From: Myxococcota bacterium
GTDB lineage: Bacteria; Myxococcota_A; SURF-8; G963663525
Direction: 5' to 3'
Assembly: GCA_963676915.2 (NCBI GenBank)
Contig: CAXXVK010000010.1
Span: 128,001-192,000, forward strand
DNA length: 64,000 nucleotides
Positions 16,093 through 51,677 of this stretch are shown piece by piece; position 1 is the stretch's first letter, and each line of letters opens with the position of its first letter. A program made the translations under genes and the position numbers. Under the pieces are notes generated by a model that made no database searches, was not told the DNA's origin, and saw only the letters and a list, made by a program, of their open reading frames with translations.

Positions 16093-16122
16093 ATTGTAAA
16101 TAACGTACCAAAGGATTGTCAA
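16093..16122 (-). promoter_or_regulatory. Sigma70-like promoter for fbp
   Basis: Minus strand TTGACA-18 nt-TACAAT. Confidence 0.6.
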
Positions 16123-16202
16123 CTGTTTTGACGAGGTTTTTTTTTGGTCTTAACCGTAGGCAGTGGTATCGTGGCCCGACCAAAAAGGCATCCGGAGGAA
16201 AC

Positions 16203-17123
16203 GTGACCGAACGGAAGACCACTCGAACCCAGCGATTTTTCGCTTTTTTCGTAGCGATAGCGCTTCTAGCGCTGATGGCGTGGTCCGTATCGTTTTATTC
16301 TGGTTTATGGTCTTCCGAAATCCACCCGGACGACTGGAAACACGCCGCCGAGCGCATCGCCAAAGACTTTCAACCGGGTGATATCGTAGTGGTTTCCCCA
16401 AGCTGGCTCAGTTTCGGCGAACGGGAACTGGTGCTTCGCGGGTTGGAGTACCGTCAAGCCGATCACCCGGAAATCGAGGAGTTTCCGCGAGCGAAACGGC
16501 TGTGGGTCATGTCCGCTTACGGACGCTGCGATTTCGACGCCATGGAGCGCAAAACCGGCGCACCTTTGGTGAAGGAAAAAATCGGAGCCTTTACCGTAGC
16601 GCTGTTCGACGCCGGAGGTTTCGCGACGGGTCGGTACATTCTCGTGGATCACGTTCCCGAGGCCGAGGTGTATGTCAAACTCCCGAACGAACGACATTTT
16701 TGTCCCTGGAAGCCCGATAAAAACATGCACCTGTGCGACGAAAACCAGGACTGGCACAGTGTTTACACCCGCACGCATGTACGACGCGGAATGGTGCGAA
16801 AATCCATTTGGGCGCATCCGGTGCAAAACGGCCAGAAAACCCTTGTGTTTCACGACGTAAAACTGGGTTCCCGAATCGTTGTCGGATACGGCATGACCGA
16901 ATGGGCCGCCGCGTTGGATGGTGGCGGAACGGTCTATCTGGAATTCCGCACCGAAACCGACCTGCTGGCGAAATACACCATGGAAAACCGTTCCGGCTGG
17001 TTTCGTGGAAGCATCGACACAGCCGGTCTGAAAGGTAGCATTCACGATTTGCACGTCGTTCTGACGACCAACAACCAGGGACGTCGCCATCTCTTTTTCG
17101 AAGCGTTTGTGACCGATGATTGA
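16203..17123 (+). CDS. Hypothetical membrane-anchored periplasmic protein resembling GT-C C-terminal domains
   Basis: GTG 16203 with GGAGG RBS; single N-terminal TM; overlaps the downstream GT gene. Confidence 0.7.
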   Translation: MTERKTTRTQRFFAFFVAIALLALMAWSVSFYSGLWSSEIHPDDWKHAAERIAKDFQPGDIVVVSPSWLSFGERELVLRGLEYRQADHPEIEEFPRAKRLWVMSAYGRCDFDAMERKTGAPLVKEKIGAFTVALFDAGGFATGRYILVDHVPEAEVYVKLPNERHFCPWKPDKNMHLCDENQDWHSVYTRTHVRRGMVRKSIWAHPVQNGQKTLVFHDVKLGSRIVVGYGMTEWAAALDGGGTVYLEFRTETDLLAKYTMENRSGWFRGSIDTAGLKGSIHDLHVVLTTNNQGRRHLFFEAFVTDD

Positions 17124-19107
17124 ACCGAACGAAAACCGAAGCTTTTTTGCACGTACCGGGCTGGGGCTTGTCCTGGCGCTGGCGTACGTCGTGACCATCG
17201 GCCTGACCTGGGACGGCGTCGGTTATGCCAAAGATGAGGGATATTATTTCAGCGCGGCCAAGTCGAATTTCGGCTGGTACACTTCGCTGTTTGAAAATCT
17301 TTTCGACGGTCATCCCGAACGTTCATTCACGGAAAAGGACATCGAGCGTCACTGGAAAAACAACGCCGAGCATCCGCCGTTGCTCAAAGTGCTGATGGGG
17401 TTGTCCAACCATCTGACGAACCGCTGGATTCCTTTGTTGAATTACGGCAACAGCCATCGGGCGTATTCGCTGCTGTTTTCGTTTTTACTGATTCTTTTCC
17501 TGTATCGTTTCACCGCCGAACGCTGGGGACCACCGGTGGCCGTCGGTGCGGTGGCGCTGTATAGCGTGATGCCGCATCCGTTCTTCCACGCGCACCTCAA
17601 TGCTTTCGATACGCCCGCCGTGACGCTGTGGCTGCTGGGGCTGCTGATTTTCCGCCGAGCGATGGTTTCCCGGCGCTGGGCCTGGGGGGCCGGTCTGTAT
17701 TGGGGAACCGCCATCGCATCGCGCAACCTGATGTATTTCTTGCCGTTTCTCTTTCTGGTGCTGTACATGGTTTCTCCGTATCGACGCCGATTCTTCGCGT
17801 TTTTCCCGGCGATTCCGCAGCGCATCCAACAGACACCGAAATGGAAATTCGCCCTTGTCGGCGCGTGTTTCGTGCTACCGTTTCCCCTATGGGCTTTTGG
17901 GGTGGAATGGCTGAACCTCGGGATCGTCGTGTCGCTCGTGGTGTTGTGCACCTGGCTGAGTATCGCTCTGCTGCGCAAAAACTCGACCTTCCCGCTGCAC
18001 TGGGCTACGGCGTTGAGCACCTTGCTGTTTGCTCCGTTGTTGCAGGTCGTGTACTGGCCGTGGATATGGTTCGACACCTGGAGTCGGCTGGGCGTGTTTT
18101 TCAAGCGACATCTCAATCCTCCGGCCTGGGAGACGTATTACCTGGGGGATATGCAGTACAATCCGCCGCCGTTTCCCTGGCATTATCCTTTCGTGATGTC
18201 TTCTTACACGATTCCGGTGACGATCCTGTTTCTTCTGCTGGTCGGGTTGGTGGTGCTGGGTTGGCGAATGAAAAAAATTGCGCCAAAGGAAAACGAAACG
18301 CTCCAAACCGCACCAAAGGCCGAAACGTTTTCGACAACCTGGGAGTCCGAGCACGTTCTGTGTACCTCCGATGACGAGAAAACGCCGGTGGTCACTCCCC
18401 GTTGGGATACGCTGCTTGTACTGTTGGGAGCCGTGACACCGTTGTTGATTATCGCCAACCCGAAAACCCCCGTGTATGGCGGCACCAAGCATTTTATGGC
18501 CGCACTGCCGTTTTTTGCCATTGGCGGGGCGTTGGTGTTGAAACAGACCGCTACGATCCTGGCCGGGGTGCTGCGTTCCCCAAAAGCGGTTGCGCCGGTG
18601 TTTTCGGTGTTGTTGGCCATCGCTCTCGTGCCTGGAGTTTTAGGGATCGTAAACGCGCATCCACAGTGTCTAAGCTATTACAACGAATTGATGGGCGGAA
18701 CCAACGCTGCCGAGGAAGTCGGTATGCAACGCACGTTCTGGGCGGTTTCCACGCGTGGCGTGCTGGACGAACTCAACCGGATTGCACCGGAACGGGCGAA
18801 AGTCTATTACAACAACACGCCGTGGGATTCGCTCAACGCCTATCGTCAGGACGGCCTGTTGCGCAAGGATCTGCGCCGCACGGACAAAATGGACGAAGCG
18901 GACTTTTTCGTGCTGAACAACTGGAGGGTGCATTACGATTGGATCTATGAAATGCGCGAGAGTCTGGGAACCCCTTATGCCCTCGATGCGGTGACGGTCA
19001 ACGGCCTGCCGCTGTGCGAACTTTACAGCAACGCGAAAAAGCATCCCGATCTCACTCCCAAAGCGGCGACGGCCAAATCTTTTTCCAAAAAATCAGAGAA
19101 CAAATAG
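17116..19107 (+). CDS. GT-C (GT39/PMT-like) glycosyltransferase
   Basis: DE motif after TM1 (KDEG), EHPPL, multiple TMs, C-terminal periplasmic domain (LSYYNELMGG). Confidence 0.8.
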   Translation: MIEPNENRSFFARTGLGLVLALAYVVTIGLTWDGVGYAKDEGYYFSAAKSNFGWYTSLFENLFDGHPERSFTEKDIERHWKNNAEHPPLLKVLMGLSNHLTNRWIPLLNYGNSHRAYSLLFSFLLILFLYRFTAERWGPPVAVGAVALYSVMPHPFFHAHLNAFDTPAVTLWLLGLLIFRRAMVSRRWAWGAGLYWGTAIASRNLMYFLPFLFLVLYMVSPYRRRFFAFFPAIPQRIQQTPKWKFALVGACFVLPFPLWAFGVEWLNLGIVVSLVVLCTWLSIALLRKNSTFPLHWATALSTLLFAPLLQVVYWPWIWFDTWSRLGVFFKRHLNPPAWETYYLGDMQYNPPPFPWHYPFVMSSYTIPVTILFLLLVGLVVLGWRMKKIAPKENETLQTAPKAETFSTTWESEHVLCTSDDEKTPVVTPRWDTLLVLLGAVTPLLIIANPKTPVYGGTKHFMAALPFFAIGGALVLKQTATILAGVLRSPKAVAPVFSVLLAIALVPGVLGIVNAHPQCLSYYNELMGGTNAAEEVGMQRTFWAVSTRGVLDELNRIAPERAKVYYNNTPWDSLNAYRQDGLLRKDLRRTDKMDEADFFVLNNWRVHYDWIYEMRESLGTPYALDAVTVNGLPLCELYSNAKKHPDLTPKAATAKSFSKKSENK

Positions 19108-19369: not shown

Positions 19370-19445
19370 GCCCCCATAGCTCAGCTGGATAGAGCTGGGG
19401 ATTCCTAATCCCTGTAAGCCGGAGGTTCGAATCCTCCTGGGGGCA
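19370..19445 (+). tRNA. tRNA-Arg(CCT), CCA not encoded
   Basis: Acceptor GCCCCCA/TGGGGGC, D arm GCTC/GAGC, anticodon loop TT-CCT-AA, T arm GGAGG-TTCGAAT-CCTCC. Confidence 0.93.
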
Positions 19446-46484: not shown

Positions 46485-46564
46485 AAGGTTTCATGTACAG
46501 CGACTAGCAAACTCCGGCACTTTGATTAGTAATCTCCGCACGTTTTGCTCTAAGAAAAACATGT

Positions 46565-46667
46565 GGACGGGGATACAATCCCCATCCATCGATAAGTCTT
46601 TTTGCTTGCGACAAATAGTTTTCGAAAACACCTTGGCAATGTCGGGCAAAAAATTTGCCCGACCTAC
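46565..46667. repeat. Two REP-like palindromes
   Basis: 46565-46589 ggacggggatacaatcccatccatc; 46641-46667 gtcgggcaaaaaatttgcccgacctac (GTAG-type on minus strand). Confidence 0.72.
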
Positions 46668-46674
46668 TGAAATT

Positions 46675-49600
46675 TTACTTTTTCCAGGCGTAGGGACCGT
46701 CGGGTAGGGGATTGGTCTTTATCGAGGGTTTCTGGATGTCGTGCCTTGCGGAGCGGTCGTAGATCTGGCTTATGATATCTTCGCCGGTTTTTTCCTGCCA
46801 GAGCAGGGTCTGACCGTAGGTCTGTTCGAAAATCAGGCTTTTGGGATTCTCGGGCTGCCCGGTTTTGGAAAACACCGCCAGCACCCAGTCTCCATCTCCG
46901 AACGTTGCCGGTTGGAGATCGTTACGAAGCTTGCCCGACCATTGCAACAAACGAAAAACCTGGCTCAGACGGTTGGCGTCGGGTGTGAGCTCGATGCGGA
47001 TCTTGTCCGGTGCGTTCCGATTGAGCCAATCCACGGTTCCCAGTGGGATCGTGCACTCGACCCCAAGCGGCCAGTTTTTCCCTCCCGCTCCGAGAATCAG
47101 TGAATGCACGGAGTGGGTCGAGGAAAGATGAGGATAGGCGGACGACAAAAAGGCGATCTGTAACAGCACCACGAGCGCTCCGATACCCGGAGCCACCGCC
47201 TTGGCGAGTTTGCCGCTATCCGCTGGTAGCAGGTTTGGAATGATGGTTTCCAAGGCTGCGTATCCGTAAGCCGCCAAAACGACGACGAAAGGCAGAGGCA
47301 GGAAAAACAAGCCTTCGTTCCCCGGACCGTCGAAAGCCAGACCGAGCAGAATCAGGCCGATGACAAGCACTCCGGCGTGAATGAAATCGGCCTGGTGAGG
47401 TCGGGTGTCGAGTTTGTATCCGGCTGCCGCATCGGACCACAGGAAATGGAGCAACGCTACAATACCTGTTACAGCCAGCAAGAGCATCAGGCCGGTTATC
47501 GACGCAAAAGCCATGGCAAAGCGTGTCGAAGCCGGAAGCAGCAGACCCGAAGCCATCGAAGCGACCGAATTCTGGTACACGTTCATGCTTGGTCCACGGG
47601 AGAGATACAGCCGAATCTGCTCGAAATCCGCCAGCCAGAAGCTTGGCCAGCAAAGCATTAGAATTACAGGAGAAAGCAGCAGCACTAACAGAGTCAACCA
47701 TGCAGCACGGCGGCCTGTATCCATATCGAGATCGGGGTAAGCGTCGTCGTTGCCCAGGTGTGCCAGATGTTTGATCGGTGTCCAGGCGAACAGTGGTGCC
47801 GTAAGCAGAAGGGGAGGCCACATTCCCGTTGCCAGACCGAAAGACAGCCCGAAAAGCGGAATATACAGGAGGTTGTGTTCGGATTGTTTTGAAAAATAAT
47901 ACGCTGTAAACAGCGCCGAGGTGATCGCGACAACAGGAAGTGCACGGTGAGAAAACTCGAAGAAAAACGGGGAGGTAGCCAATATCATCGGGGCGAGGAT
48001 ACCCGCAGCCAGCCCCAGACGGTCATTGGTAAAACGAAACACCATGAACAACAGCCAGGCGGCGAGTAGTGCGAAGGAGAAGCGACCGGCGTCCAGTTCT
48101 CCCATGGTTTTTGTAAGATAACTCAGTCCTAACGTGCCCAGCGAGGTTACGATGGCGCTTCCATCCGGACCCTTGGCGATGTGGTCCGCTTTCGTTTCCG
48201 TGGCGTCGTAAAATGCCCCGATGGCTTTGTCCGCTGTTTCGATTCCCAACCCGTTGGCGAGTTTGTAGGCGAACGAGGAGGAATGCAGCACGGTTTCCAC
48301 TTCCCGATAACTAAGCCCCGAATGGTCGATCGTCCCCCACATCACGTAAGCGAAGACCACCGCCAGCAATACTCCTACGATTCGTCGTTTCTTGGAGAAC
48401 AGGGTTTCGGAAAACGTGTCTTCCTTGAGTTCCGAAATGGAGGAAATCGTTGCCGTGGCCGTTCGTCGAAGTTCATCCTCCGAGGACGCCTCTTCCCTGG
48501 TACGGATCGGCAGGGTATCCTCCGATTCGCTGGAACGAGGGCGTTGGGTTGTCGAACGTCGAACCGGCACTTCTCGAACGGCTTCCGTTTCGTGGGTGAT
48601 GCGGGAGTGTCCGTTGCTTGTTTCGACCCGGTATGGATCACTCACCTCCCGGCGGGTAGCCGGTTTTTCGGGGAGAGGTCGCGCATCGACGACGGTAGAA
48701 ACCTCCGATGGCGGCGTCATCTCCAATTCGACCGATTCTCTAGCCATTTCAACATCATAGACCGGTTGCAAGCTGTCCATGGTTGCGGCTAGCGGCTCGA
48801 GTTCGATTGTGGTATCGGGTGTCGTTTTCGTTGTAGTAGGTTGTTCCTTGAGGGGTTTCGTCGGAACATGCAGCGGTTCGGCATCAAGGGGTTCGAGTTC
48901 GGGGATCGCATTTTCCGAACTGGGTGTTACGGTGGTTTCTTCCAGTATCCAAGCCGATTCTGTGGCACCGGTTTTTTCGTGATCTTCCGGGATGTCCATC
49001 GGAAGTTCCGACAAGTCCCCGGAATCGATGGCGGTTCGTCGCACGGAACGTCCGGGATCTTTCGAAAGGCCGTTTTCTCCGGTATCCCAATGGGGCAATG
49101 GGGCAAATGGCAAAGTTTCGGATAGGGCTTCGAGGGCGTCGGCGAATTCGTGGGCCGACTGGTATCGTTCGTCCGGTTCGCGACAGACGGCGCGGGCGAT
49201 GACTCGTTCCAGATCCTTCGGCACCATCCTGTATTGACGGATGGAAGGAAGAGATTCCTTGTGGGCGCGCATCAACGCTTGAATCTGCTCGACCAGTTCC
49301 GCTTTTTGCGGAACATCGAAGGGCAATTCTCCCGAGAGGGAAACGAAAAGCACCAACCCAAGCGCGTAAATATCGCGCAAACGAGACATTTTCAGCCAAG
49401 TGTCTTCATCGACATCCTTCGCACCTTGTCCCGTCTTGCTGTAAAACGTCTCTGGAGGTAGATATTCCAGCGTTCCTACGTGCAGGCCGGAACTGGTTAC
49501 TCCGGCATCCGCAAAACGGCGCGCCAGACCGAAATCCAGCAGTTTGACAGTACCGTCCTCTTCGATAAACAAGTTGCTGGGTTTGATATCCCGATGGCTG

Positions 49601-50004
49601 ATGCCGTGATCGTGGGTATGAGCCAGTGCTCGAGCCGCTTGTAACGCAAACGATACGGCCTGACCGGGAGTCAACATGTCCAATCGCCGAATCCACGTCG
49701 CCAAAGACGACCCTCTGAGCAGTTCCATCACGACGAAAAGCTGTCCATCGCACTCGAATGGGGGTTCTGCACTTGGAAGATTGGGGTGTTTTAACGACAA
49801 CATCAACGCGGATTCGCGCAAGAAGCGGGTGACGTTCTTTTCTTCAGACATCAGGCGGGAGTGAATGATCTTGATCGCACGATATTGGTCCGGGACCAAG
49901 GCATGTTTCGCTTTATAGACGACCCCCATGCCTCCGCGACCGATTTCATCGAGGAAAATCCACTCGCGAATGTGCTTACCGATCATCGATTCCTCGGCCA
50001 CCAA
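46675..50004 (-). CDS. Hanks-type Ser/Thr kinase fused through a disordered linker to a GT-C-like polytopic membrane domain
   Basis: GRGGMG, AIK, HRDIKPSN, DFG, GTLEYLPPE; C-terminal ~560 aa align by eye with the 17116-19107 protein; alternative start ATG 49986. Confidence 0.88.
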   Translation of the reverse strand: MVAEESMIGKHIREWIFLDEIGRGGMGVVYKAKHALVPDQYRAIKIIHSRLMSEEKNVTRFLRESALMLSLKHPNLPSAEPPFECDGQLFVVMELLRGSSLATWIRRLDMLTPGQAVSFALQAARALAHTHDHGISHRDIKPSNLFIEEDGTVKLLDFGLARRFADAGVTSSGLHVGTLEYLPPETFYSKTGQGAKDVDEDTWLKMSRLRDIYALGLVLFVSLSGELPFDVPQKAELVEQIQALMRAHKESLPSIRQYRMVPKDLERVIARAVCREPDERYQSAHEFADALEALSETLPFAPLPHWDTGENGLSKDPGRSVRRTAIDSGDLSELPMDIPEDHEKTGATESAWILEETTVTPSSENAIPELEPLDAEPLHVPTKPLKEQPTTTKTTPDTTIELEPLAATMDSLQPVYDVEMARESVELEMTPPSEVSTVVDARPLPEKPATRREVSDPYRVETSNGHSRITHETEAVREVPVRRSTTQRPRSSESEDTLPIRTREEASSEDELRRTATATISSISELKEDTFSETLFSKKRRIVGVLLAVVFAYVMWGTIDHSGLSYREVETVLHSSSFAYKLANGLGIETADKAIGAFYDATETKADHIAKGPDGSAIVTSLGTLGLSYLTKTMGELDAGRFSFALLAAWLLFMVFRFTNDRLGLAAGILAPMILATSPFFFEFSHRALPVVAITSALFTAYYFSKQSEHNLLYIPLFGLSFGLATGMWPPLLLTAPLFAWTPIKHLAHLGNDDAYPDLDMDTGRRAAWLTLLVLLLSPVILMLCWPSFWLADFEQIRLYLSRGPSMNVYQNSVASMASGLLLPASTRFAMAFASITGLMLLLAVTGIVALLHFLWSDAAAGYKLDTRPHQADFIHAGVLVIGLILLGLAFDGPGNEGLFFLPLPFVVVLAAYGYAALETIIPNLLPADSGKLAKAVAPGIGALVVLLQIAFLSSAYPHLSSTHSVHSLILGAGGKNWPLGVECTIPLGTVDWLNRNAPDKIRIELTPDANRLSQVFRLLQWSGKLRNDLQPATFGDGDWVLAVFSKTGQPENPKSLIFEQTYGQTLLWQEKTGEDIISQIYDRSARHDIQKPSIKTNPLPDGPYAWKK

Positions 50005-50273
50005 AAAATATATTCAAAATCGTGCGAAAAAATTATGTAACACACCGCCTGTTTAACTCCAAACAGTTTACACTAAACCGTGACCAATTTATTAACAAAT
50101 TTCTGTGTTTTTTCAGGATTTTAGGCAAAAGGATGCGTTTTTCGACACTATCTGTCGAAAAAACACAGGATTAAAAACGATACTGAAAAGAAAACGGGTG
50201 TGAGGACAAACCTAGTCGAACCACGACCGTAACGAGTCGGAACCGGAAAAAACGGGTATTGTCGAGGGGTTGA

Positions 50274-50486
50274 TCAATCCTCGGCGTTGATTTTCAGCGG
50301 AGCTTTGGTGACTTTGCCGGAACGGATGCAGCTCGTACACACGGTTTTGCGCGTGACGGTTCCGTCTTCGAACACCCGAATCTTCTGCACGTTGGGGCGG
50401 AAGACACGGCGGGAGGAATTGTTCGCGTGGCTGCGATTGTTACCGGTCATCGGACCTTTGCCGCAAATTTCGCATTTCCTGGACAT
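50274..50486 (-). CDS. rpmB: 50S ribosomal protein L28
   Basis: [10 protein letters not shown]...GNNRSHANN...F.PNVQ...VCTSCIR. Confidence 0.96.
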
Positions 50487-50737: not shown

Positions 50738-50810
50738 ACGACCATCGAAAATCAGCATTTTTATAGCTTGATATTTGGAATATTTAGTGTATCCAAAGGA
50801 ATGCGTCGCC

Positions 50811-51677
50811 ATGCCCGCCAAGAAAAAAACGGAAACGAAACCTCGAAAAGCCACGAAAACCCAGGCAAAAGAAGCGAAAAAAACGACGGTAAAATCGAAA
50901 ACCAAGGCGTCGAAAAAGGCGAAAACATCGAAACCTGCCAAAGAAGCCAAAGAAAAGAAAAAAGCCGAAACGACCGAAGTAGTGAAAAAGACTGCGAAAA
51001 AGGCTACGAAAAAGAAAGCGACCCCGAAGGTGGAAAAAAAGGCGGCACCCAAGAAGACATCTACAAAGAAAGCAACAACCACCGCTAAAAAGAAACCGGC
51101 GACGAAAAAGAGTACGGCGAAGTCTGCACCGAAGAAAACGACCAAGGCGGCCACGAAAAAGAAAAAAGCGGCTCCCGAGACGGACAGCTATGTTACCGAA
51201 TCCGGTTTGAAGCAGAAAAGCAAAGCGCCGCTGTTTACGCTTCCCGCCTCTACCGGGATGAAAATAAGCCTCAAGGAGATCAAAGGCGAGCGCGTGGTGG
51301 TATTGTTTTTCTATCCCAAAGACGACACCCCCGGCTCCGCGTTGCAAGCCAAGGATTTTCAGAAATTCAAAGACGAATTCGCCACCAACGGAGCGATTTT
51401 GTGCGGAATCAGCGGCGACACGATGGAGAGCCACGAGGAATTCGCCGAGCAAAACGGTCTGACCTTCCCGCTTTTGGTGGACAAAGATTTCAGGGTGGCG
51501 AAAAAATACGGAATCTACGGTGAAAAAACGCTGTTCGGACAAAGCTTTTTCGGTATTACCCGCACCACCTTCGTGATTGGTAAAAATGGACGAATTCTGA
51601 AGATTTTCCCCAATGTCAAAATCAAGGGACATGTTGCGAAAGTCGTGGAATACATTAAGGATTTAAATTCCAAATGA
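50811..51677 (+). CDS. BCP/PrxQ-like protein with N-terminal Lys/Ala/Thr-rich histone-H1-like extension; peroxidatic Cys replaced by Ser
   Basis: ~120-aa K/A/T-rich tract, then APLFTL, FFYPKDDTPGS, GISGD, RTTFVI. Confidence 0.88.
   Translation: MPAKKKTETKPRKATKTQAKEAKKTTVKSKTKASKKAKTSKPAKEAKEKKKAETTEVVKKTAKKATKKKATPKVEKKAAPKKTSTKKATTTAKKKPATKKSTAKSAPKKTTKAATKKKKAAPETDSYVTESGLKQKSKAPLFTLPASTGMKISLKEIKGERVVVLFFYPKDDTPGSALQAKDFQKFKDEFATNGAILCGISGDTMESHEEFAEQNGLTFPLLVDKDFRVAKKYGIYGEKTLFGQSFFGITRTTFVIGKNGRILKIFPNVKIKGHVAKVVEYIKDLNSK

Follow-up and report, generated by a model that had tools for sequence, protein, structure and literature searches.

The soluble sensor domains known to be combined with Ser/Thr kinases in bacteria are many, and a number of membrane proteins are known to have given up their original job and to act now as signalling receptors, for instance UhpC and the yeast Snf3 and Rgt2, which are paralogs of working membrane proteins. 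These receptors, however, are derived from transporters and signal via separate proteins, whereas the protein described here has its membrane part derived from an enzyme and covalently joined to a kinase. The PASTA-Hanks kinases, such as PknB of Mycobacterium tuberculosis and StkP of Streptococcus pneumoniae, share with it an N-terminal cytoplasmic kinase, a juxtamembrane linker and an extracytoplasmic input. PknB and StkP cross the membrane with a single helix and carry PASTA repeats as a soluble input, while in the fusion it is an enzyme-derived module of ~11 helices, preceded by a ~240-aa linker. The outer domain of PknB has been reported to bind lipid II (PMC6428115).

The membrane half of the fusion resembles the GT-C class A glycosyltransferases of the PMT_2/ArnT/PMT type (PF13231, PF02366) in homology over the whole module, in its hydropathy pattern and in the predicted succession of the first transmembrane helix (TM1), loop helices and a C-terminal domain, but it has lost the Asp residues that these enzymes carry in loop 1 and in TLD, their EHPP..K motif and the Lys of TK, and it carries a fused kinase. 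Another polytopic protein of envelope biogenesis combined with a kinase-fold domain is MviN, a MurJ-type flippase of M. tuberculosis, in which phosphorylation and FHA docking are reported to control cell-wall synthesis (PMC12599244). As described there, MviN is the mirror image of the fusion: its membrane part works and its C-terminal kinase fold is dead, whereas the fusion has a live-looking N-terminal kinase and a dead-looking membrane enzyme. Finally, the PIGU subunit of the GPI transamidase is described as exhibiting a GT-C-like structure, is placed outside the family and is linked to glycolipid handling (10.1101/2024.09.17.613550); unlike the fusion, PIGU is a eukaryotic transamidase subunit with no kinase.

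A single gene for a kinase and a membrane module

The fusion is encoded on the reverse strand of a 64,000-nucleotide stretch (hereafter the window) of contig CAXXVK010000010.1 from an uncultured member of Myxococcota. Its open reading frame (46675..50004, 1109 aa) is free of stops and in its longest form opens at a TTG at 50004. The likely translation start, judged from the sequence context, is the ATG at 49986, which is preceded at 5-6 nt by GAGGAA and agrees with the start of both the database gene call (P0001) and the ortholog from a second species (P0002). The whole gene, as defined by the open reading frame list, the start assignment, the gene call and the ortholog, thus covers 46675..49986 (-) and encodes 1103 aa followed by a stop. 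Directly 3' of it lies a repeat-rich stretch. Inspection of the neighbourhood revealed no glycosylation, FHA or phosphatase genes adjoining the fusion gene, and a search of the whole window against Rfam at gathering thresholds returned nothing but one tRNA.

The initial annotation had read the frame as one gene, and the continuity across the linker is borne out by a contig from a public run, a separate assembly that covers positions 46638-50300 with 0 differences. The same fusion is present, free of stops, in the 4-contig genome of the second species (G001; 69% identity between the orthologs), and a strain variant (P0017) also carries it unbroken. A single intact gene joining the kinase and the GT-C-like module is hereby confirmed in three assemblies, i.e. 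the host genome (G000), G001 and that of the strain variant. The host genome comprises 74 contigs and is 90.8% complete, which, together with the repeats just 3' of the gene, might suggest an assembly chimera, or a product of a recent frameshift that is heading for loss; this explanation is hardly credible in view of the recurrence of the stop-free architecture in the second species and in a further strain, of the identical public-run contig spanning the whole gene, and of dN/dS values far below 1 in every structured part.

The N-terminal part is a cytoplasmic Hanks-type Ser/Thr kinase domain (49156..49953 (-)), delineated by Pfam Pkinase, catalytic motifs and sequence matches in the PDB. The Pkinase model (PF00069) matches residues 18-283 with an E-value of 2.3e-43 and 148.9 bits, well above the cut-off of 31.7. 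The kinase motifs are intact, as originally noted: GRGGMG at residue 16, AIK at 37, HRD at 131, DFG at 151 and PPE at 177, in the numbering of the 1103-aa protein. The closest solved relatives by sequence are StkP (E 4e-36), with which the motifs are aligned, and PknB (E 3e-31). The domain shows 87.6% identity to the ortholog and dN/dS of 0.038, and it apparently represents an active kinase.

The kinase is followed by a cytoplasmic linker (48391..49104 (-)), rich in Glu, Thr, Ser and Pro and mostly variable, as judged from its composition and from the alignment with the ortholog. The ~240 acidic residues mentioned in the initial annotation are recovered as 245 aa with 34 Glu, 31 Thr, 25 Ser and 24 Pro and a net charge of -20. 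Pfam gives no match in this region, and identity to the ortholog is 54% overall, dropping to only 17-23% in one stretch. Pairwise alignment with the ortholog reveals two conserved islands, one at 48949..49029 (-) (IDSGDLSELPMDIPEDHEK.GATESAW) and the other at 48694..48807 (-) (IELEPLAATMD.LQPVYDVEMARESVELE.TPPSEVST), the latter with ~90% identity in 30-residue windows; for linker residues 385-430 the dN/dS is 0.10. As to its origin, P0004-type enzymes have an acidic tail at the N-terminus from which the linker might have been inherited, but we rejected this, the similarity being insignificant (best E 0.37).

Homology and topology of the membrane module

The C-terminal ~570 residues comprise a degenerate GT-C module of the PMT_2/ArnT-like type with ~11 helices (47128..48390 (-), from hhalign, HMMER relatives and a structural model) and a C-terminal alpha/beta domain (46678..47127 (-), from the family alignment and the model), which is periplasmic by homology. 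TM1 (48325..48381 (-)) has been identified by hydropathy and corresponds to helix 2-19 of the model, with pLDDT of 93; the KKRR sequence before it, on the cytoplasmic side, fits a cytoplasmic N-terminus.

The window also encodes an active-looking paralog, a type B GT-C protein of 663 aa (17116..19107 (+)), recognised by PMT_2 and its motifs and not physically linked to the fusion. It matches Pfam PMT_2 with an E-value of 4.9e-11 and 43.5 bits, retains the GYAKDE, EHPPLLK and LNAFD motifs, and has an ortholog in G001. The colinearity of the two proteins, proposed at first on the basis of five motif pairs, stands up to profile-profile comparison: hhalign aligned them over 521 columns (probability 99.9%, E 1.5e-34), with all five pairs mutually aligned. 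BLASTP between the two window proteins alone gave marginal hits in colinear pieces (best E 0.026 and 0.029), and when the C-terminal 571 aa were searched against the genome that carries the window, the fusion gene itself was the sole match. A 601-aa GT-C protein from the sister species provides a transitive link, as it matches both window proteins (E 1.5e-25 and 3.8e-13). In addition, smoothed hydropathy along the alignment correlates with r = 0.858, compared with at most 0.257 in 64 circular shifts. Together these comparisons support the C-terminal half as a true homolog of the paralogous GT-C over the whole module.

Against PMT_2 (PF13231) the module itself reaches 17.8 bits, short of the cut-off of 26.1, and is matched over residues 638-726 only, while 9 of the 10 nearest HMMER hits scanned score above the cut-off. 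The nearest relatives are standalone PMT_2 proteins of 532-804 aa; the GT-C parts are not represented by any NCBIfam model. An AlphaFold2 model of the module (pTM 0.81) places TM1, the loop helices and the C-terminal alpha/beta domain in the expected order, the strands and helices at 450-549 corresponding to the latter, and pLDDT falls below 50 in five loops of 8 to 22 residues, one 3-residue stretch and the last 6 residues. The WLNRNAP and GKLRNDL motifs place the C-terminal domain opposite that of the family. The stem branch of the module in the family tree is very long, at 3.97 changes per site; this length is compatible with a functional shift and obscures whether the module belongs to clade A or to clade B.

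Catalytic positions of the module

Where the family invariably carries D-[DE] in periplasmic loop 1, the fusion has R-E (48301..48306 (-)). Both hhalign and MAFFT set D40/E41 of the paralog opposite R/E at 48306-48301, in accord with the substitution of DE by RE reported initially, and the ortholog has H/E. The loop-1 Asp is invariant in all 14 active members, whereas the window protein has R and the ortholog H, so that the position appears unconstrained; in the model it is the second residue of the helix starting at 28, the first after TM1. Loss of HPPL, the other change that had been pointed out, is evident from the alignment of AEHPPLLK of the paralog with IAKGPDGS. The columns in which the family has the His and Lys of EHPP..K, the Asp of TLD and the Lys of TK show G, A, V/A and a gap in the module. 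The positions matching ArnT D55, K85, D158 and K203 are occupied by R/H, G, V/A and a gap, respectively, in a mapping of ArnT and Pmt2 residues made at 18-22% identity and with weak structure links (Pmt2 E 2.2e-4, ArnT E 0.6). Among 48 columns, each conserved in at least 12 of the 14 active members, the fusion retains 21; these include 13 of 20 Gly/Pro columns and only one of nine D/E/K/R/H columns.

In a study of Pmt from Streptomyces coelicolor, Ala mutants of D113, H159, D233 and K302 were non-functional, and D113, H159 and K302 were equated with D55, K85 and K203 of ArnT (PMC8698208); D233 was mapped to ArnT D158 from the ArnT/Pmt2 alignments made here. The positions lost in the module correspond, by motif, to these four Pmt residues. 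The same study also reports that Pmt D113N is active and that DE mutants of M. tuberculosis Pmt retain some activity (PMC8698208). The module still has the Glu beside the lost Asp, the Asp in TIDHSG further upstream and the Arg with which loop 1 ends. Given the retained Glu and Asp and the active D113N, loss of the Asp alone is no proof of inactivity.

Selection on the module was estimated from two sequences, i.e. the window protein and its ortholog, with dN/dS of 0.17 for the membrane core and 0.106 for the C-terminal domain; dN is 0.23, as against 0.95 in the variable linker. Within the module, the C-terminal domain has changed least (75.8% identity to the ortholog), and a 146-aa fragment (P0003) is 35% identical to it. 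Loss of conserved polar residues combined with purifying selection is the signature of a pseudoenzyme, and a pseudo-GT-C fused to an apparently active kinase is, at the level of sequence, well supported.

Purifying selection would also be expected of a divergent but still active GT-C that uses other residues, such as the Glu of R-E/H-E or the TIDHSG Asp, and that regulates or is regulated by the kinase. The three retained residues and the reported partial tolerance of Pmt enzymes to DE mutations lend this possibility some weight. We nevertheless regard it as quite improbable, as eight of the nine conserved charged or His columns are gone, among them the equivalents of four residues whose mutation abolishes function in Pmt or ArnT, the former Asp position differs between the two species (R or H), the PMT_2 score lies below the cut-off and the stem branch is very long. 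We therefore infer that the pseudo-GT-C module no longer transfers sugar.

Proposed function and distribution

We consider it slightly better than an even prospect that the protein is a membrane-bound Hanks kinase with a GT-C-derived pseudoenzyme as its input module, activated by clustering. The kinase and the flexible acidic linker would reside in the cytoplasm, and the C-terminal ~570 aa would keep the GT-C helix topology and the periplasmic domain. The module, for which we infer a sensing role, would bind a target on the periplasmic side of the membrane, which is more likely to be a partner GT-C, or an envelope glycan or protein resembling an acceptor, than a lipid-phosphate sugar in the canonical site. 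The sensing of polyprenyl-phosphate sugar in the canonical mode, which had been among the initial suggestions, appears weakened, because the His/Lys residues presumed to orient the phosphate in Pmt and ArnT (PMC8698208) are replaced by Gly and a gap. Binding would set the position and the local density of the kinase, and clustering with trans-autophosphorylation would activate it with no rigid transmission along the linker; rigid allosteric coupling is unlikely because the ~240 residues of the linker are largely disordered. Phosphorylation and docking are likely to take place in the linker, given its richness in Thr and Ser and the two islands conserved in it.

The same linker bears on a simpler explanation, namely that the module is an inert anchor, which does no more than tether the kinase to the membrane, perhaps close to the envelope machinery, with all regulation coming from the cytoplasm. 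A long flexible and disordered linker decouples the two halves and is a poor conduit for a signal, the former active site has lost most of its polar residues, and the gene neighbourhood offers no hint of a ligand. For anchoring, however, one helix would do in place of ~570 residues, and it is the periplasmic C-terminal domain that has been best conserved between the species and that is recognisable even in the distant fragment, while loop segments such as SPFFFEFSHRALP and FAWTPIKHLAHLGNDDAYPDLDM show no difference between the two species. We thus regard an inert anchor as unlikely. The pseudoenzyme input module proposed above could, on a still tentative and rather doubtful interpretation, define a new class of receptor kinases, in which a non-catalytic glycosyltransferase reads the glycosylation state of the envelope, for instance through retention of an unmodified acceptor or association with the cell's active GT-C enzymes, and reports it via Ser/Thr phosphorylation.

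Neither 401 genomes from the phylum nor the protein databases searched yielded another fused form. Searches for longer proteins retrieved only P0016 (1465 aa, without a kinase domain) with one alignment as query, and only P0001 and P0002 with another; queries with the C-terminal 571 aa against genome contigs, and with the latter alignment against genome and metagenome contigs, gave pattern matches and no relative. Seven frames longer than 900 aa among the 150 active-family matches listed lack any kinase motif and resemble run-through frames of GC-rich DNA. The carriers of the module found are two uncultured species and the 146-aa fragment, which limits the general importance of the finding, and the fused form is, in the searches made so far, confined to one little-known genus. 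The initial annotation knew of no described kinase with such an architecture, and we found none in the searchable literature; nor does the literature searched hold a case of a whole polytopic enzyme made non-catalytic and joined to an active kinase. The fusion appears to represent a rare and novel kind of membrane receptor, or else of membrane anchor, of a kinase. Should the module turn out to bind a glycan of the envelope, an acceptor protein or a transferase as its partner, it would illustrate in concrete form how bacteria keep watch on their surface glycosylation, and it would be a naturally occurring GT-C scaffold retained for binding alone. If a glycosylation-reading receptor is indeed what it represents, the state of surface glycosylation would feed back directly on the physiology of the cell.

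Gene structure of the kinase fusion

The open frame of the fusion runs on the minus strand from 50004 to 46675 and comprises 1109 codons if counted from TTG. GAGGAA lies ahead of an ATG at 49986, the protein initiated there has 1103 aa, identical to the public gene call (P0001), and the ortholog in the sister species of the same genus (P0002, genome G001) starts at the same place; therefore, we set the gene limits to 46675-49986. The N-terminal part is a protein kinase domain (residues 18-283, Pfam E 2.3e-43), which belongs to the Hanks kinases, has StkP (E 4e-36), PknE and PknB as its top solved relatives by sequence, and contains the motifs GRGGMG, AIK, HRD, DFG, PPE and DIYALG, in agreement with the initial annotation of the kinase as intact. 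It is followed by a linker of about 240 residues, rich in Glu, Thr, Ser and Pro and with a net charge of -20, and by a C-terminal half with about 11 hydrophobic helices, the first of which is immediately preceded by KKRR.

The possibility that the fusion is an artefact is contradicted by the presence of the same fusion in three assemblies. Both G001, assembled in 4 contigs (1113 aa, open frame of 1117), and a strain variant, P0017 (1105 of 1113 residues identical), carry the architecture intact, while a public-run contig spans 46638-50300 with no difference, in a run that may be the genome's own sample; the frame is thus that of one gene without a break across the linker, as initially proposed. 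All 8 differences between P0017 and P0002, which represent two strains of the sister species, fall in the GT-C-like part and none in the kinase or linker, numbers too small for interpretation.

The gene is divergent from genes for a peroxiredoxin and a short-chain dehydrogenase, and this side is syntenic in G001. Synteny is absent on the opposite side, where an ORF of 218 aa that matches no family is found together with short interspersed repeats of two kinds. Genes for glycosylation, FHA proteins or phosphatases do not adjoin the fusion; elsewhere, the genome has 14 matches to the kinase domain and 17 to FHA. The peroxiredoxin (50775-51677; AhpC/TSA, E 2.7e-33) has a Lys/Ala/Thr-rich, histone H1-like N-terminal tail of about 145 residues; the protein is kept in G001 with 61% identity. 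The repeats directly 3' of the fusion (46531-46670) comprise a unit of about 60 bases (46534-46594) and a palindrome of about 40 bases (46628-46670), which also resembles the terminator hairpin of the fusion gene; together, the two kinds have 57 matches across the genome, and public-run contigs end at this stretch (depth 116 vs 3.9).

Relationship of the membrane module to PMT_2-type glycosyltransferases

The initial annotation aligned the C-terminal half by hand with the active-looking GT-C paralog encoded at 17116-19107 (plus strand, 663 aa; hereafter the 17116 protein). This alignment was at the limit of pairwise methods, since BLASTP of the two proteins alone returned only colinear pieces (E 0.026 and 0.029) and the C-terminal 571 aa, used as query against the window's own genome, retrieved solely the gene itself. 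The Pfam PMT_2 match is also weak (residues 638-726, 17.8 bits vs a cut-off of 26.1). The colinearity is settled by other evidence. An exhaustive HMMER search of 1.84 billion representatives with the module (E <= 0.001) returned 14 matches: the fusion itself, a fragment of 146 aa and 12 proteins 532-804 aa long, for which the PMT_2 cut-off was passed by nine of the ten scanned (P0014 and P0015 were left out). A 601-aa GT-C of G001, searched against the window's genome, provides a transitive link, matching both the 17116 protein in three pieces (E 1.5e-25, 1.1e-17 and 1.1e-16) and the fusion (E 3.8e-13). Profile-profile comparison, with the two fused modules on one side and 14 active-looking members on the other (first row, the 17116 protein), yields an alignment of 521 columns from TM1 to the C-terminal domain (probability 99.9%, E 1.5e-34), in which all motif pairs cited initially are matched. 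Smoothed hydropathy over 522 shared columns is correlated with r = 0.858, vs a maximum of 0.257 over 64 circular shifts. By its sequence, then, the module is a descendant of the PMT_2-type GT-C family, and homology and topology point to a GT-C fold; an AlphaFold2 model (16 sequences, pTM 0.81, mean pLDDT 73.5) orders it as TM1, first-loop helices, a helical bundle and a C-terminal alpha/beta domain.

In a 30-row tree (P0003, P0004, P0016 and P0017 left out, the G004 enzyme included as G004_A), the active family forms two clades, A and B (SH-aLRT 99 each), and the 17116 protein and its G001 ortholog fall in clade B. The stem leading to the fused pair measures 3.97 changes per site, and the placement of the pair is unsure; from one species to the other, the path length is 0.46 for the fused module vs 0.22 for type B.

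Several neighbors of these enzymes were also recorded. A membrane-anchored 335-aa ORF without a family match (16116-17123) overlaps the 17116 gene by 8 bases, and the same ORF precedes an 808-aa GT-C in another genome, G007 (locus L014, 663-1718; BLASTP E 2e-24), so that the two genes probably form a conserved unit. A tRNA gene (19370-19445; Rfam, 59.8 bits) lies just downstream of the paralog, ahead of an HU-like ORF. The 601-aa enzyme is the third GT-C of G001 (type A; locus L013, 2854-4659), retains GLTDDDD and EHPAVAK, and lies beside genes for a methyltransferase and a membrane protein resembling spermidine synthase; a search for a counterpart in the window's genome (90.8% complete) found none.

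Loss of catalytic residues

When the two fused modules are aligned with 14 active-looking members, 48 columns show conservation in at least 12 of these 14. The fusion retains 21 of them, including 13 of 20 Gly/Pro positions but only one of nine D/E/K/R/H positions, an Arg located where loop 1 ends. In 17116 numbering, D40 (GLT-D-DDD / GYAK-D-E) is replaced by R in the window and H in G001, H86 and K91 (EHPP..K) by G and A, R154 and H158 (PRxFFH) by F and F, D165 (TLD) by V or A and H335 by M, while K203 (TK) is opposite a gap. The previously noted change of the catalytic-loop DE to RE and the loss of HPPL are thus both borne out. For the suggested alignment with ArnT/PMT, the motifs line up, but solved chains are matched weakly at the profile level (yeast Pmt2 6p25_B, E 2.2e-4; ArnT 5ezm_A, E 0.6); these matches pair EHPP with ArnT EKPP, TLD with TLD and TK with TK.

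In Streptomyces coelicolor Pmt, D113A, H159A, D233A and K302A are reported not to complement; in the same work, D113, H159 and K302 are taken as the equivalents of ArnT D55, K85 and K203, mutation of which abolishes function, and His159, Lys302 and Arg510 are described as positioned for orienting the donor phosphate (PMC8698208). We assigned these residues to alignment columns by motif reading at about 20% identity. In PimE, ALG6, ArnT and PglB, the first juxtamembrane helix is described as bearing the catalytic Asp at its tip (10.1101/2024.09.17.613550); in the AlphaFold2 model, the first helix to follow TM1 begins at position 28, and the R replacing this Asp is its second residue. D52A in the GT-C domain of TMEM260 is reported inactive (10.64898/2026.03.17.711096).

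The alternative that the module is a still-active enzyme is weakened by the loss of eight of the nine conserved charged/His residues and by the occurrence of R in one species and H in the other at the former Asp position. However, the adjoining Glu is retained, Pmt D113N is reported active and Mycobacterium tuberculosis DE mutants only reduced (PMC8698208), which, together with the mapping at about 20% identity, makes catalytic death, as initially claimed, less than certain. By its residues, the module lacks the defining catalytic features of the PMT_2-type family, and its interpretation as a pseudoenzyme is well supported at the sequence level.

Distribution, constraint and putative receptor function

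The fusion is rare. Among 401 genomes sampled across the phylum, the module query matched in 34 (E <= 0.001) and the active GT-C family is common (263), but the fused frame occurs only in the window's genome and G001. The collection includes only 10 genomes of the class: both members of the genus have the fused C-terminal domain, which was not found in the remaining eight (79-95% complete), except for one weak match to a type A enzyme, and word-based searches of 5.8 billion proteins returned nothing besides P0001 and P0002. The 146-aa fragment P0003, from an 893-base public contig, shows 35% identity to the C-terminal domain of the fusion and also contains NWPLG, LQWSGKLR and TYGQT..W.EK, motifs private to this domain, a hint that the degenerate module exists in a more distant lineage as well. 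A 1150-codon frame in G219, a genome from another family of the phylum, was considered as a fusion and rejected: it encodes another PMT_2 protein (1148 aa) with a poly-acidic N-terminal tail of about 230 aa, directly followed by a separate gene for a Ser/Thr kinase with a transmembrane helix and a PEGA domain (locus L019, 2747-6193 and 6429-8267), a single case of adjacency that may be due to chance.

In the encoded protein, an active-looking kinase is covalently joined to a membrane module that derives from a GT-C, is conserved and non-canonical, and includes a periplasmic domain. Relative to the G001 ortholog, identity and Nei-Gojobori dN/dS (rough ratios, as dS is close to saturation) are 87.6% and 0.038 for the kinase, 54% and 0.29 for the linker (two islands near 90%, one stretch of 17-23%), 66.2% and 0.17 for the membrane core, and 75.8% and 0.106 for the C-terminal domain, the best-kept part of the module, which as a whole, from TM1 to the end, is 68.8% identical; dN is 0.23 in the membrane core vs 0.95 in the variable linker. 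That the module is an inert anchor is made less probable by its size and conservation.

A receptor reading of the fusion is plausible as a hypothesis. The module would not transfer sugar and would be kept for binding, a view also shaped by the C-terminal domain being its best-kept part; as the presumed donor-phosphate residues are lost, an acceptor-like molecule or a partner protein would be a likelier ligand than a lipid-phosphate sugar occupying the former site. Since PMT enzymes are described as obligate dimers (PMC7759382, PMC12705809), it is a reasonable guess that the module pairs with itself or with an active paralog. Given the long flexible linker, control may be exerted via clustering or placement, followed by trans-autophosphorylation, with the Thr-rich conserved linker islands as candidate phospho-docking sites.

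Searches of the open literature, including PF13231 together with PF00069, found no kinase-GT-C fusion, consistent with the initial statement that no such receptor kinase is known to have been described. PIGU is described as a GT-C-like protein without transferase function (10.1101/2024.09.17.613550), and mycobacterial MviN, a working flippase reported to bear a dead kinase fold (PMC12599244), is a mirror image of the fusion. The PASTA-Hanks receptor kinases would be the most similar in working, but the input part of the fusion is of another origin: within the open literature searched, an enzyme-derived input module on a membrane Ser/Thr kinase is unprecedented.
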